Sequence record: OR204650.1
DNA length: 39,650 nt
Origin: Escherichia phage pO91
Strand: one strand, 5' to 3'
Numbering within the stretch: position 1 is the first letter of the stretch; every line of letters begins with the position of its first letter. The position numbers were made by a program, and so were the translations under genes. The notes below the pieces were generated by a model, which saw nothing but the letters and a program-made list of their open reading frames with translations, was not told where the DNA came from and did not search any database. Of this stretch, positions 32,903 to 38,924 are shown piece after piece.

Positions 32903-35023
32903 ATGTCCACGATTACACAATTCCCTTCAGGAAACACTCAGTACAGGATTGAGTTCGACTACCTAGCCAGAACGTTTGTTGTTGTTACGCTGGTGAATAG
33001 CTCTAACCCTACCCTGAACCGTGTACTGGAAGTTGGTCGAGATTACCGATTCCTTAATCCAACGATGATTGAGATGTTGGTTGACCAATCAGGTTTCGAC
33101 ATCGTTCGTATTCACCGTCAGACTGGAACTGACTTAGTGGTAGACTTCAGGAATGGCTCAGTGTTGACAGCTAGTGACCTGACCAATGCAGAGCTTCAGG
33201 CTATCCATATTGCAGAAGAAGGTCGAGACCAAACTGTTGACTTAGCGAAGGAATATGCCGATGCTGCTGGTAGCTCTGCTGGCAACGCTAAGGATAGCGA
33301 GGACGAAGCACGACGAATCGCTGCTACTATCAAGGCAGCTAGTCTAGTTGGTTATATTACCCGTCGCTCCTTCGAGAAAGGCTTCAACGTTACAACATGG
33401 AACGAGGCCCTGCTATGGGAAGAGGATGGTGATTATTACCGCTGGGATGGTACGCTTCCAAAGAACGTTCCTGCTGGTTCAACTCCTGAAACGTCTGGTG
33501 GCATTGGGTTAGGCGCGTGGGTTAGTGTCGGCGATGCTACATTGCGCAATCAAATATCTGACCCTGACGGTGCCACTAAGTACCCAGCGTTACAAATTGC
33601 GCGTTGGCGTGATGAAGGAGATGTGCGCGGTTGGGGTGCTGGTGAAGAAGGTTTTAACGCCGCGATGTCTGCTATTAGCTCATCAGGAGGTGGGACGTTA
33701 TTTGTAAACGAGGATATTCTTTTCACTTCGTTACCTATTAACCACCTACCAAAAGTTACAGTCCACTGGAACGCTAAGGCAATTGTGCAGACCGGACTTA
33801 CATCGACTTACGCCTACATCATGGACGGTGGCGCCGATACTCCATCTTATGATAATACCGACCACTTTACGCTAGCTAACAAAACTAACTGTTACGGCTT
33901 GCGTTTAGAGGCGCAGGATTACACTGTCGGGATCAATGCCATTGGTGTATGTGTTAGGCATTGCTACGGGTGGACTTACGAAGGGGGAGCCATTATCGGA
34001 TTTAATAATGGAGGTTTCTACGAGACTAACAACTACGAAGGAAAAGCCAGCAAGTTCACTCTAGTTGTAGCCAATACAAGACTTGATAACTCCGTGGGGT
34101 TTGAAAGTAATTCAACTGACAGTTGGTTTAGTGAAATTTCGCCAGTAGGTTATTCAATCGGTGGAAAGTTTAATAAGAGTGGTAACTCTCTAGATAAATT
34201 TCATCCATGGGGAAACACTGTTGATAATCGCGTAGGCGTGATGGGGAAGATGAATGTTGGTATCGTAATTACAGAGAATGGAGGTTTTTCTACATATTCA
34301 AATATTATTCTTGATACTCCAGTAAGGAAAAACACCAATAATGTCCCATCTAGAAGTAATGGTGGGGTTGGTGTAATTTGTGATGCATGGGACTGCGTTC
34401 TTGATGGGATTCTTGTATTACCGTCCAAACATGACACAGTAGCAAAAAGTACCTTACCAATGATCACCACTACGCAAAGATCAACAATAAAAGATTTTCA
34501 GGTTTCGGGTGAGCAGTATGTAACAGACATATGGATTTCATTTGAAAACAATTCAGGGATAGCCAGGAATCACGTTTCAGGTTATGGGTATGCTGAAAAA
34601 ATGCGTACAGGAATGACCTTTGGGCCTAATTCTGGAGCTGCCCTTGCAAGTGCTGGGGGTGTAACGATGTCGAGCCAAACTCTGACCTCTGGAATATGGA
34701 ACAACACATTAAGTTTTTCCATAGCTACAACAGTAACAGCTATACCGTCAGCAACAGGTGATGTAATTGTTAATATATCTCCTGTTTATGGCATTAAATC
34801 TGGATTCGGAGGTACTGTTAAGGGTGGTATGTTTGCATTCTTCTATGCTACCGCTAACTCCTCCAAACAATTGTACGATGTGTCCATAGAAGTTACAGCA
34901 GACAACACAGCTAAGTTTCTGCTAACGTTTATCGACGGCACGACACGGTACGCACGATGGACAGATGTATCTAACGGTTCATCAAGAAGCATAAGCATAT
35001 CAGGAGTCCTTAATATAAAATAA
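32903..35023 (+). CDS. Tail fibre / tailspike protein (T7 gene 17 homolog N-terminus, divergent C-terminal receptor-binding module)
   Basis: N-terminal ~150 aa (FDYLARTFVVVTL, DYRF, DFRNGSVLTASDL, AEEGRD) match the recalled T7 gp17 adaptor domain; the remainder is unrelated to T7 and the last ~1 kb is visibly AT-rich. Confidence 0.9.
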   Translation: MSTITQFPSGNTQYRIEFDYLARTFVVVTLVNSSNPTLNRVLEVGRDYRFLNPTMIEMLVDQSGFDIVRIHRQTGTDLVVDFRNGSVLTASDLTNAELQAIHIAEEGRDQTVDLAKEYADAAGSSAGNAKDSEDEARRIAATIKAASLVGYITRRSFEKGFNVTTWNEALLWEEDGDYYRWDGTLPKNVPAGSTPETSGGIGLGAWVSVGDATLRNQISDPDGATKYPALQIARWRDEGDVRGWGAGEEGFNAAMSAISSSGGGTLFVNEDILFTSLPINHLPKVTVHWNAKAIVQTGLTSTYAYIMDGGADTPSYDNTDHFTLANKTNCYGLRLEAQDYTVGINAIGVCVRHCYGWTYEGGAIIGFNNGGFYETNNYEGKASKFTLVVANTRLDNSVGFESNSTDSWFSEISPVGYSIGGKFNKSGNSLDKFHPWGNTVDNRVGVMGKMNVGIVITENGGFSTYSNIILDTPVRKNTNNVPSRSNGGVGVICDAWDCVLDGILVLPSKHDTVAKSTLPMITTTQRSTIKDFQVSGEQYVTDIWISFENNSGIARNHVSGYGYAEKMRTGMTFGPNSGAALASAGGVTMSSQTLTSGIWNNTLSFSIATTVTAIPSATGDVIVNISPVYGIKSGFGGTVKGGMFAFFYATANSSKQLYDVSIEVTADNTAKFLLTFIDGTTRYARWTDVSNGSSRSISISGVLNIK

Positions 35024-35141
35024 ATAACCCCGCCGAACCGGGTAGAGGGTCGAAGGTTGTGGAGGTAGAGGCTAACTGCACGCTGACCAACGTATGTAAC
35101 AACTTTGGGTCACGGACGACCCGCTTTAAACTGGAGGTTTT

Positions 35142-35336
35142 ATGATTGAGTTAGACTTCAAGAATGAGGTCCTTAAAGCCTCTCCTATCGTCGGGACCGC
35201 TGCGGCTGATGGTGCCAGTCGGTTCTTCTTCGGACTTACACTGAACGAATGGTTCTACGTTGCAGTTATCGCGTACACCGTTGTCCAGATTGGTGTGCTA
35301 GTCTACAAAACGATTAAAGGAGGTGGTAAAACATGA
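35142..35336 (+). CDS. Holin (T7 gene 17.5 homolog)
   Basis: LDFKNEVLKASPIVGT..AD...RFFFGLTLNEWFYVAVIAYTVVQIG matches recalled T7 gp17.5. Confidence 0.92.
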   Translation: MIELDFKNEVLKASPIVGTAAADGASRFFFGLTLNEWFYVAVIAYTVVQIGVLVYKTIKGGGKT

Positions 35337-35596
35337 CGCAGATGGACTTAGAGAAGTTCCTCTTAATGCTAGATACTGAACGTGCTCGACTCATGTTGCA
35401 AGACTTACGTGACGACTCTAAGCGTTCACCTCAGCTTTACAACGCCATTGAGAAGCTACTGGCTCGTCACAACTTTGTGTTAAGCAAGGTGTCTGTGGAC
35501 GAGAAGACGCTGGCTGATATGGAGGCCCTGAACGCAGAGTACGATAAGGTGCTTTCAGCGACTGAGGATAATGACACCGGGTATGGTGTTCAATAA
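35333..35596 (+). CDS. Terminase small subunit (T7 gene 18 homolog)
   Basis: FLLMLDT, RSPQLYNAIEKLLARH match recalled T7 gp18. Confidence 0.88.
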   Translation: MTQMDLEKFLLMLDTERARLMLQDLRDDSKRSPQLYNAIEKLLARHNFVLSKVSVDEKTLADMEALNAEYDKVLSATEDNDTGYGVQ

Positions 35597-35599
35597 GTG

Positions 35600-35646
35600 T
35601 TAGACTCAAGGTCATTACTATATGTAGTGGCCTTTATGGTTAACAC
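35600..35646 (+). promoter_or_regulatory. Conserved hairpin element, copy 3 (putative RNase III site, R18.5-like position)
   Basis: TAGACTCAAGGTCA...TGGCCTTTATGGTTAAC; stem AAGGTCA/TGGCCTT at 35608-35614 and 35628-35634. Confidence 0.5.
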
Positions 35647-35697
35647 TAACTAGTGGAGGCGACTCTACGTGAAATCTGATAAACCGGGAGGGCATCT

Positions 35698-36135
35698 ATG
35701 CTCGAATTTTTAAAGAGAGCGGCTCCGTGGTTACTTGCAGCAGTGATGTTTGCTGGTGGCTACCACACCGCTAACAATAAGTGGGAGGCTAAGGTCAATG
35801 CAGAATACACCTCGAATCTTAAGGCATCGGAAGATACAAGGCTTGCTGTCCAAGCTGAAGTCAACAAAGTGTCCAGACGGTTTCAGGACGAAATGTCCTC
35901 GCTGGAAGGCAGCACTGATAGGATTATTGCTGACCTTCAGTCTGACAATAAGCGGTTGCGCGTCAAAGTCAACACCTCAGGTCTCACCGAGTCCGATATC
36001 AGTCGATGCTTCCCTAATGGTAGAGTCGAATTACACGAGTCAACTTCTAGAAGTCTTATCGAAATAACCCAGAAGGCAGACTTAAAGGAGAAGGCTTTAC
36101 AGGATACCATAAGGAGGTTGCAGGGTGCTAAGTGA
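35698..36135 (+). CDS. Rz-like i-spanin (T7 gene 18.5 homolog)
   Basis: MLEFLKRAAPWLLA, LEGSTDRIIADLQSDNKRLRVKV, LQDTIRRLQ match recalled T7 gp18.5. Confidence 0.92.
   Translation: MLEFLKRAAPWLLAAVMFAGGYHTANNKWEAKVNAEYTSNLKASEDTRLAVQAEVNKVSRRFQDEMSSLEGSTDRIIADLQSDNKRLRVKVNTSGLTESDISRCFPNGRVELHESTSRSLIEITQKADLKEKALQDTIRRLQGAK
35798..36067 (+). CDS. Rz1-like o-spanin lipoprotein embedded in the +1 frame of Rz (T7 gene 18.7 homolog)
   Basis: PRWKAALIGLLLTFSLTISGCAS lipobox and SVDASLMVE match recalled T7 Rz1; GGAGG 9 nt before ATG 35798; wholly inside the Rz gene. Confidence 0.85.
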   Translation: MQNTPRILRHRKIQGLLSKLKSTKCPDGFRTKCPRWKAALIGLLLTFSLTISGCASKSTPQVSPSPISVDASLMVESNYTSQLLEVLSK

Positions 36136-36511
36136 TTTAGTATATGAAGACGGGAAGCTGCTTAAAGGTGGGAAGGAGGTGGGTCACATCTCTAACCACG
36201 GCTACAGGCGCTTCAAGATAAACGGAAAGAACTATTTGGTCCACCGCTTGATTTACAAGATGCACAATCCTGAGTTCGACATTCTATCTGAACTGGTTGT
36301 GGACCACATCAACCGCAACCGTCTGGACAACATGATTGAGAACCTAAGGGCTGTGACCACGGCGGAGAATAACAGGAACCACGCTCCACCACTAGGTGTA
36401 TCATTCTGTAAACAGACTGGTAAATGGAAGGCGATTCATCCCCGGTGGCTTGGACGTTTTGATACAAAAGAGGAGGCCCTTAATGCAGTCAACGCCGCAA
36501 GACAGGAATAA
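36125..36511 (+). CDS. HNH_3-type homing endonuclease with AP2-like DNA-binding domain (paralog B1)
   Basis: [30 protein letters not shown] core followed by [28 protein letters not shown]; between Rz and large terminase; start uncertain (GTG 36125 or GTG 36178 after GGAAGGAGG). Confidence 0.8.
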
Positions 36512-38246
36512 TGAGCTGACCTCTCGGATGAAGGCGGACTTTGTGTTCTTTCTCTTTGTCCTGTGGAAAGCACTATCACTTCCCCCCCCGACTCGCTGTC
36601 AGATTGACATTGCTCGAAAGGTATCTAATGGGGGCAACCGCCGATTCATCCTTCAGGCTTTTCGAGGCGTGGGTAAGTCGTTCCTCCTATGTGCCTTCGT
36701 GGTCTGGAAGCTATGGAACAACCCAGACTTGAAGTTCATGATTGTGTCGGCCTCAAAGGAACGAGCCGATGCTAACTCCATATTCATCAAGCGAATCATC
36801 GACCTCATGCCTCAGCTTCAGGAACTAAAACCTAAGCAGGGGCAGCGAGATGCGGTTATCAGCTTCGACGTTGGGCCAGCCAAGCCAGACCACTCACCTT
36901 CGGTTAAGTCCGTTGGTATCACTGGTCAATTGACTGGTAGTCGTGCCGACATCCTGATTGCCGATGACGTGGAGGTTCCGAACAACTCAGCGACTCAGGC
37001 TGCACGAGACCGCCTGTCAGAGCTTGTGAAAGAGTTCGACGCTATCCTGAAGCCGGGAGGTACAATCATCTATCTGGGTACTCCTCAGAACGAGATGACC
37101 TTGTATCGTGAGCTGGAAGGCCGTGGGTACACCACTACTATCTGGCCAGCTCGTTATCCACGCGACAGGAAGGACTGGCAGTCTTACGGAGACCGTCTGG
37201 CTCCTATGCTTCAGGCAGAGCTGGAAGAGGACCCTGAGGCATTCTACTGGCGTCCAACCGATGAAATACGATTCGATGATACGGACCTTAAGGAACGTGA
37301 GTTGTCATATGGTAAAGCTGGCTTCGCTCTACAGTTCATGCTTAACCCGAACCTGAGTGATGCTGAGAAGTACCCTCTGAAGCTCCGTGACCTTATCGTA
37401 GCGGACTTGGACCCAGCGTCCAGTCCAATGGTCTACCAATGGTTGCCGAACCCTCAGAACAAGCGTGAGGACGTTCCTAACGTTGGACTCATGGGTGACT
37501 CATACCACACGTATCAGACTGTAGGTTCTGCCTTCAGTTCGTACACCCAGAAGATTCTGGTCATTGACCCTAGTGGTCGTGGTAAGGATGAAACTGGTTA
37601 TGCGGTACTATATCAGCTCAACGGCTACATCTTCGCTATGGAAGTTGGTGGTATGCGTGGTGGCTATGAAGACTCTACGCTGGAAGCCTTGGCTAAGATT
37701 GGTCGTAAGTGGAAGGTCAACGAATACGTCATTGAGGGTAACTTCGGTGATGGTATGTACCTTGAGCTATTCAAGCCTGTAGCGGCCCGTATCCATCCTT
37801 CGGCTGTAACTGAAGTGAAGAGTAAGGGTCAGAAAGAACTCCGCATCTGTGACGTTCTGGAGCCTATCATGGGGTCTCACAGACTTATCGTCAACGCTGC
37901 TGCTATCGTCCAAGACTACCAGACAGCCTCTGACAAGGATGGTGTGCGTAACCCTATCTACTCTCTCTTCTACCAGATGACACGTATCTCTCGTGAACGT
38001 GGAGCCTTGGCACACGATGACAGACTTGATGCTCTAGCTATCGGTGTACAGTTCTTCGTTGAGTCTATGGCTAAGGATGCCAACAAAGGCGAACGTGAAG
38101 TCACTGAGGAGTGGCTGGAGGAACAGATGGAGAACCCACGGAAAGGCTTCGAGTCCATCCACACTGAGTTCTGGGACAATGGTGTCCGGGTAACTCACGA
38201 TATGGACGACGAGCTGGGGCTAGGGTCCTACGTTACGTTTCATTAA
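36483..38246 (+). CDS. Terminase large subunit (T7 gene 19 homolog)
   Basis: 587 aa versus 586 in T7; [108 protein letters not shown]; ATG 36483 after AGGAGG. Confidence 0.97.
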
Positions 38247-38259
38247 ATAAGGAGGTATT

Positions 38260-38802
38260 ATGGCGAAGGTGAAGGACATCGACAGGGTGTCCCTCTTCGA
38301 CCACTATGCGTATGTTGATGGACAACTGGTGTGCAGGAAGCCTTTCGGCAGCTCGAAGAAGACCCCGGGCGAACCTATGGGCTTCTCTGTACACCCTTCC
38401 GGATACGCCATAGTGAAGGTGCTTGGAGGTAGGTATAGACGCTCTCGAATCATATACAGTCTAGCTGTAGGTCGAATACCTAAGGGTATGATGGTCGACC
38501 ACATCAATGGTGATAGGCTGGACGATAGACCTGAGAACTACAGGCTTGTTACTGCGCTTGAGAACCGCTGGAACTCAGAGGGTGGAGAGACTAATGGTCT
38601 CCCTAAGGGTATCAGCTTCTTCAAGCCAACAGGTAAATATCGTGCTCAGCTTCGGGTTCATGGTAAGTGTTTCACTAAGACTTCGGATTCCATAGAGGAA
38701 CTAGAGGCATGGCTGGCTGCTCTACGAACAGAGAAGCACAAGGAATACGCAGTAAACCGACGGTCCCCTACGCGAGATAGGACATACAGAAACCGTAAGT
38801 AG
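38260..38802 (+). CDS. HNH_3-type homing endonuclease with AP2-like domain (paralog B2)
   Basis: MVDHINGDRLDDRPENYRLVTALEN plus GISFFKPTGKYRAQLRVHGK; directly after the large terminase gene; AAGGAGG RBS. Confidence 0.85.
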   Translation: MAKVKDIDRVSLFDHYAYVDGQLVCRKPFGSSKKTPGEPMGFSVHPSGYAIVKVLGGRYRRSRIIYSLAVGRIPKGMMVDHINGDRLDDRPENYRLVTALENRWNSEGGETNGLPKGISFFKPTGKYRAQLRVHGKCFTKTSDSIEELEAWLAALRTEKHKEYAVNRRSPTRDRTYRNRK

Positions 38803-38815
38803 AATCAACAGGTTA

Positions 38816-38838
38816 ACTAAACTATCACTATAGGGATG
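38816..38838 (+). promoter_or_regulatory. Phage RNAP promoter near the right end (phiOR-like)
   Basis: ACTAAACTATCACTATAGGGATG; transcript begins GGGATGGGGGGACCGGGGGGACC. Confidence 0.8.
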
Positions 38839-38924
38839 GGGGGACCGGGGGGACCTTACTATATGCCGACCAAAAGTTAGCATATATACATATATAAGGT
38901 AGACCTTAAGTCTCCCTATTGTTA

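Follow-up and report, generated by a model that had tools for sequence, protein, structure and literature searches.

The window analysed here, the whole 39.65-kb stretch of DNA from Escherichia phage pO91, derives from a Kayfunavirus (K1F-like) that shows 93–95% DNA identity to known genomes. On its plus strand, at 36483..38246, lies the gene for the large terminase subunit (terL), a gp19 homologue of 587 amino acids that was identified through Pfam, PDB matches and an exact look-up. The encoded protein matches WMM35661.1 (Escherichia phage pO91) exactly, Pfam searches with the open reading frame returned PF22530 at 1e-37 and PF03237 at 5.4e-5, and the nearest solved structures were 8dgc_E (2.9e-244) and T7 gp19, 4bij_A (4.5e-213). 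The protein has the features of a T7-type large terminase, namely full-length similarity to solved T7-family terminases and Pfam terminase domains, together with an intact Walker A motif downstream of the C tract described below. This Walker A motif (P-loop) reads AFRGVGKS in the translation and occupies residues 59–66 (36657..36680, plus strand); the Pfam Terminase_6N match begins at residue 61. The program-made list of open reading frames begins the terminase frame at GTG 36396. We take ATG 36483 to be the true start, because a GAGGAGG Shine-Dalgarno sequence precedes it, the predicted N-terminus MQSTPQ... aligns with those of the relatives' proteins, and the relatives are annotated likewise. 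The large terminase of T7, encoded by gene 19, is essential for packaging.

The terminase gene is flanked on both sides by genes of the HNH type. Upstream, an open reading frame of 128 amino acids (36125..36511, plus strand) carries an HNH_3 domain (Pfam PF13392 at 5e-15) and a weak AP2 match, as in homing endonucleases, and overlaps the start of terL by 29 nt. Directly 3' of terL there is a second HNH_3 open reading frame of 180 amino acids (38260-38802, plus strand); it occurs in phiYIO1-1 (gp50) and is missing at that place in P7124 and BUCT788, and L091, a metagenomic relative, has a different HNH gene of 138 amino acids at the same position. Elsewhere in the window, at 32903-35023 (plus strand), a 706-amino-acid open reading frame encodes a tail spike, which in relatives has a T7-tail N-terminus. 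Presumably this tail spike corresponds to ORF43, the O91-specific receptor-binding protein employed in STEC detection, and ORF43 is listed as such in a review (PMC13433624).

The C8 tract within terL

A run of eight C residues, CCCCCCCC, lies at 36582-36589 (plus strand), preceded by T and followed by G, in the context ...GCACTATCACTT CCCCCCCC GACTCGC.... Codons P34 (CCC) and P35 (CCC) contribute six of its bases and the opening CC of P36 (CCG) the other two, and the codons across the site are L33 CTT, P34 CCC, P35 CCC, P36 CCG and T37 ACT. Direct reading of the sequence thus bore out the 8-C run reported in the initial annotation, which had also described it as encoding LPPPT near the terminase N-terminus with the frame intact; both statements were correct, the peptide being L33-P-P-P-T37 and the frame continuing through all 587 amino acids.

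No other homopolymer in the window exceeds 6 nt, and the C runs next in length are one C5 and 12 C4. The expected number of C runs of at least 8 in the window was 0.25 under an iid model, 0.07 under a first-order Markov model and 0.008 under a second-order Markov model; for runs of at least 8 of any base the corresponding values were 2.0, ~1.2 and 0.12. Three consecutive prolines, the usual minimum for a polyproline motif, are reached at P34-P35-P36, which is the single PPP in the 28 major open reading frames of the window, and the tract uses two of the 15 CCC codons found in these frames. C8 is therefore a real outlier for the pO91 genome in three respects: its length, the codons it uses and the peptide motif it encodes.

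The composition of the window as a whole was also recorded. The CCC proline codon is strongly avoided throughout (15 of 403 proline codons in the 28 major plus-strand open reading frames), polyproline is scarce in the same set (one PPP and 10 PP), and homopolymers are generally depleted, with no runs of 7 and four runs of 6. Two G6 runs, 3 nt apart, are located at 38838-38852 in the non-coding right end, and the non-coding ends that follow terL in relatives contain a C8 (L089, position 3990) and a C10 (L014, position 3335). These G6, C8 and C10 runs of non-coding ends may be features of a terminal repeat or a packaging region.

A conserved LPxPTxxQ element at the tract

The tract falls within a conserved motif, L-P-x-P-T-x-x-Q (36579..36602, plus strand), which reads LPPPTRCQ in pO91, with x at residue 35, and which recurs in 91 of the 96 related loci. 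The same number of loci carried the fuller pattern W-x-x-[L/I]-x-L-P-x-P-T-x-[C/V/I]-Q. Both flanking prolines, the threonine and the glutamine are fixed in LPxPTxxQ of the 91 loci and x varies freely, being D in 22, E in 20, V in 13, S in 10, K in 9, P in 7, N in 5, Q in 2, A in 2 and I in 1. Proline is tolerated at x, since other T7-like terminases carry it there. No C run longer than 5 was present in the LPxPT codons of the related loci.

From its pattern, LPxPTxxQ resembles a Q-motif and could be an adenine-recognition element located 19 residues before Walker A: Q40 sits 19 residues upstream of A59, and P-T-x-[CVI]-Q is conserved in the 91 loci. A Pfam scan with E values up to 10 gave sub-threshold alignments to ResIII (E = 0.12) and GpA_ATPase (E = 0.25) that begin at residues 39-40. 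A search of the literature on the terminase Q-motif yielded nothing specific to T7-type enzymes.

State of the tract in relatives

Runs of at least 8 inside terminase open reading frames were found in none of ~95 relatives (399 kb of related loci), and the only C runs of at least 8 in those 399 kb were those of L014 and L089, both in non-coding ends. The view that such runs are rare in essential phage genes therefore holds for this gene family. At the site, the twelve Kayfunavirus relatives nearest to pO91, whether named or from IMG/VR, have CCN GTN CCN (LPVPT), one of them reading CCA ATA CCA (LPIPT). Pattern scans of IMG/VR and JGI metagenomes detected neither a C8 at the homologous site nor a C7 to C10 version of the pO91-type allele. 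The initial annotation had envisaged a comparison with relatives in which C8 might prove uniform among isolates; no such uniformity was seen, and C8 is private to pO91.

Relatives with the same 5' terL allele were gathered in three ways: the N-terminal 90 residues served as a protein query, a pattern scan anchored on the flanks was run, and members were taken from the 90% clusters to which the terminase and the upstream HNH protein belong. The N-terminal 90-residue search returned only 10 short proteins, among them P0010, an 82-amino-acid Logan protein that is a +1-frame product of the pO91-type allele and that led to the allele family. Ten contigs, from independent metagenomic samples, were found to carry the pO91-type allele, and in all ten the tract is interrupted, with the codons CCT TCC CCT, CCT CCC CCT or CCC TCC CCG; the interrupted tracts include CCCTCCCC and CCTCCCCCT. 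When these sequences were aligned, ~215 nt proved to be near-invariant apart from the tract.

The alignment separated two haplotypes. Hap I, present in L088, L091, L092, L093 and L096, and in L086 with a 1-nt deletion, reads CTT CCT TCC CCT ACC CGA TGC (LPSPT); a variant of it in L089/L090 (two runs) reads CTT CCT CCC CCT, which gives LPPPT with a C5 run. Hap II, present in L094/L095 (two independent runs), reads CTT CCC TCC CCG ACT CGC TGT (LPSPT), and the corresponding pO91 sequence is CTT CCC CCC CCG ACT CGC TGT (LPPPT, C8 run). The base that makes the run is at 36585 (plus strand): pO91 has C there (CCC, Pro35), and its nearest relatives, L094/L095, have T (TCC, Ser35, CCCTCCCC). L094/L095 show 97.1% identity to the window over 35096-38245, and in the 258 nt of 5' terL they differ from pO91 at 36585 and at one other base. 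The pO91 allele is accordingly Hap II with a T/C difference at 36585, and C8 is one transition from CCCTCCCC. Among the same-allele contigs the polymorphism at the tract is a base substitution (T/C at 36585) and not a change in tract length. C8 exceeds the composition-based expectation, yet it represents a single event, one base change from the state of the relatives. An origin from the common LPVPT allele, which would take three adjacent substitutions (GGT to CCC), had also been considered and was dropped on finding that the same-allele neighbours have TCC-containing tracts.

One of the ten contigs bears on the accuracy of sequences in this region. L086 (Logan SRR15364498_7), a 2-kb contig, lacks one nucleotide in the homologous C4 run (510-520) and another in a C3 run (~1494), so that terL is split into three called open reading frames. 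Both deletions probably arose in the assembly or in the reads, and the suggestion in the initial annotation that the tract is an error hotspot is supported to the extent that C runs here attract indel errors. Could C8 itself, then, have entered the deposited pO91 genome through faulty base calling or consensus building, with the phage really carrying CCCTCCCC (Ser35) like L094/L095? Such an error would explain why, of the 11 carriers counted for the allele, pO91 alone shows C at 36585, a position inside a pyrimidine run of the kind that some platforms miscall; the clear C-run errors of L086, a same-allele assembly, point in the same direction, as does the fact that the pO91 reading takes the phage's rarest proline codon twice and makes its sole PPP. 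The difference at 36585 is nevertheless a substitution and does not disturb the frame, whereas miscalled homopolymers typically show errors of length. Moreover, CCC is present at x in the independent lineage L089/L090 (two runs), indicating that Pro35 is a real natural variant, and distant relatives also have Pro at x. We consider an error in the deposited sequence unlikely.

The divergent 5' block of terL and the adjacent HNH gene

The tract is held in a hyperdivergent 5' block of terL (36483..36700, plus strand). Identity of this block to other Kayfunavirus alleles is 69-76%, whereas the remainder of the gene reaches 95-96%, and sliding identity values shift sharply at the end of the block, near 36700. 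A megablast search of 50,697 phage records found no 28-mer in common with the first 218 nt of terL, and the best blastn identity for the block was below 78%. Other Kayfunavirus phages have several 5' terL alleles with 74-97% mutual identity and a uniform gene body (95-97%). Judged by these alignments, the 5' terL region is a mosaic, recombination-prone hot spot among Kayfunavirus.

The HNH gene immediately upstream is patchily distributed among collinear relatives. It was found in PhiNW-B1, phiYIO1-1, P7124, BUCT788, BDX03P1, L091-L096 and L086, and was missing in L003, L004, L010, L020, L021, L088 and L089. When pO91 is compared with L094, L091 and L096, identity is 97-100% in the block from ~35950 to 36710, which comprises the HNH gene and the first ~215 nt of terL, and 92-97% in the flanks of that block. 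In L088 and L089 the pO91-type 5' terL allele is preceded by a different sequence and the HNH gene is absent. The HNH gene and 5' terL have the look of a mobile module whose flank was co-converted, although the link between the HNH gene and C8 is positional only and the nuclease role is putative.

A further sign of exchange may be seen at the tract itself. The differences between Hap I and Hap II, six in all and every one synonymous, are confined to 28 nt (36572..36599, plus strand), and the surrounding ~200 nt contain no further difference between the two haplotypes. Starting at 36587, Hap II matches the K1F-type CCCGACTCGCTGTCAGATTGACAT exactly (compared with L010/L004). This arrangement suggests short-patch recombination or gene conversion at 36572-36599, and a clustered patch of this kind is the signature expected around the insertion site of a homing endonuclease; the activity of the HNH protein is itself a prediction.

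The patch also bears on whether the S35P change, with its PPP and C8, could be adaptive, either by tuning down terminase synthesis or making it EF-P-gated, or by altering a protein surface or the patch 36572-36599 as a nuclease target or immunity site; a surface variant of this sort would lie near the ATP site and be recognized by host defence or by the neighbouring homing endonuclease. Both haplotypes coexist with the same HNH gene (L091/L096 versus L094/pO91), which argues that neither is needed for immunity, and L003, which lacks the HNH gene, has the same patch sequence as the HNH carriers phiYIO1-1 and BUCT788. In addition, four of the six Hap II states are those of the K1F-type allele, so that short-patch recombination is the simpler explanation. 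An adaptive change thus seems quite improbable to us, even though the TCC/CCC change recurs on two haplotypes, six synonymous differences between Hap I and Hap II are crowded into 28 nt beside an HNH gene with ~200 nt otherwise invariant, and the region is a mosaic hot spot in Kayfunavirus.

The idea of an HNH immunity site was rejected when the patch was compared in genomes with and without the HNH gene and no consistent difference emerged. A related and broader proposal is that the patch is a nuclease target or immunity site and that C8 is one of several escape alleles. The proposal rests on the six clustered synonymous differences, on the recurrent TCC/CCC toggle and on the location of the patch, in which LPxPTxxQ is encoded, directly downstream of a mobile HNH gene. 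We hold it to be very improbable; were it true, the nuclease would be the adjacent HNH protein or an enzyme of a competing phage, and an endonuclease-driven arms race would be taking place in an essential gene.

Tests for recoding and phase variation

A homopolymer of this length could in principle act as a programmed recoding or phase-variation site, at which slippage deliberately gives an alternative product or an ON/OFF switch. The tract is a compositional outlier, and it formally contains the slippery sequences C_CCC_CCG and CCC-C. We simulated tract lengths of 6, 7, 9 and 10, which yielded products of 40, 82, 41 and 83 amino acids, respectively. The shifted frames stop after 5-47 codons, the resulting peptides of 40-83 amino acids all end before Walker A or lack it, and no long alternative open reading frame opens. 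The RNA at 36560-36680 (121 nt) folds with a minimum free energy of -28.9 kcal/mol compared with a mean of -33.6 for shuffled sequences (z = +1.31); the fold is less stable than those of the shuffles, and a downstream stimulatory structure is absent. No Rfam match, and thus no Rfam frameshift element, was detected at the tract with E values up to 1, and scans of both strands revealed neither a promoter nor a terminator there.

Thus, apart from the slippery sequence, the properties of a frameshift site (a stimulator, a substantial conserved trans-frame open reading frame and conservation of the site) were lacking, the C8 run being conserved in no relative (0 of 91 related loci and 0 of 10 same-allele contigs). 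Nor does the tract have the properties of a contingency locus: there is no length polymorphism among relatives apart from the probable assembly error of L086, and the OFF state of this gene is not viable, the terminase being essential and single-copy, so that OFF means a dead phage. On the combined evidence of the length simulation, the RNA fold, Rfam and conservation we reject C8 as a functional slippage device, a role that we find hardly credible at all.

Discussion

The evidence from the relatives and from the tests for slippage makes it likely that C8 is an incidental, private point variant and not a recoding or phase-variation device, and the variant is probably slightly costly. A plausible history would be as follows. 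T7-like terminases keep L-P-x-P-T-x-x-Q upstream of Walker A with the flanking prolines fixed and x free, and in the lineage of the pO91-type allele x would have been Ser (TCC), so that the DNA was already a pyrimidine tract. From the nearest sub-haplotype, CCC TCC CCG, one transition at 36585 (TCC to CCC, S35P) would suffice to fuse C3 and C4 into C8 and to make PPP. Transient-misalignment mutagenesis is a known polymerase error mode, and loss of the interrupting base inside the run by such a route is plausible. A serine at x is the more parsimonious ancestral state, since it would entail two S-to-P events versus ~3 P-to-S events, although recombination blurs parsimony here.

Two consequences of the substitution can be envisaged. 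Homopolymers of the length of C8 raise the rate of +/-1 indels during replication, and each such indel in the tract would be expected to produce a terminase-null, lethal genome that is quickly purged. PPP needs EF-P for efficient peptide-bond formation, and the tract may therefore be a mild liability in translation, in which a PPP stall needing EF-P is combined with CCC-C, +1-slippery and built from the rarest proline codons. Neither the indel nor the translation liability would serve regulation. The scarcity of CCC and PPP across the genome agrees with selection against these motifs and with C8 being a recent change, unselected or slightly deleterious; on balance C8 probably imposes a small cost and plays no part in regulation.

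Two observations speak against an incidental origin. The TCC/CCC toggle is seen on two haplotypes (in pO91 and in L089/L090), which could hint at selection or at mutational bias, and C8 remains a strong compositional outlier when measured against the second-order Markov expectation of 0.008.

C8 matters little biologically: it is private to pO91 and affects a residue that varies freely in an enzyme already well studied. The site has some practical bearing, because assemblies of this phage group can gain false frameshifts there, as happened in one Logan contig, and because pO91 is the source phage for the O91-specific receptor-binding protein, and its stocks could accumulate terminase-null mutants at C8. 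S35 (CCCTCCCC) and P35 (C8) form a natural isogenic pair that is usable to gauge the cost of PPP and CCC-C in an essential phage gene. For the study of phage mosaicism, the HNH-linked hyperdivergent block is a more interesting lead than C8.

Comparison with known systems

The poly-C and poly-G contingency tracts of Neisseria, Haemophilus and Campylobacter are, like C8, G/C runs of at least 8 near the 5' end of a coding sequence, and in both cases slippage by +/-1 would turn the gene off. Contingency tracts, however, lie in dispensable surface or restriction genes, whereas the gene that contains C8 is essential; unlike them, C8 is private, one substitution old and free of length polymorphism among relatives. 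A lytic phage has no known benefit from an OFF state.

With respect to translation, CC[C/U]-[C/U] is +1-slippery for tRNAPro in E. coli, reaching up to ~1% at codon 2 (PMC4519876). C8 offers CCC-C in frame at two places, in a phage whose host is E. coli; the high frameshift rates that have been published concern motifs beside the start codon, whereas C8 is at codons 34-36. Like the EF-P-dependent polyproline stalls of E. coli, C8 encodes PPP, and stalling at this site is predicted from the sequence.

The HNH_3 gene of pO91 resembles the free-standing HNH homing endonucleases of T-odd and T-even phages in being patchy and wedged between conserved genes. The co-converted flanks of those endonuclease genes would have their analogue in the ~215 nt of divergent terL, which are 97-100% identical among carriers. 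A point of difference is that the pO91-type terL allele also occurs without the HNH gene (L088 and L089).

Finally, T7 gp19 (4bij) and the PhiV-1-type terminase (8dgc) belong to the same family as the pO91 terminase over their full length. T7 reads LPVPT and the 8dgc protein LPKPT, so that neither has Pro at x nor a homopolymer, unlike pO91. Both nevertheless have the W-K-A-L-x-L-P-x-P-T-x-C-Q element and the Walker A motif in common with the pO91 enzyme.
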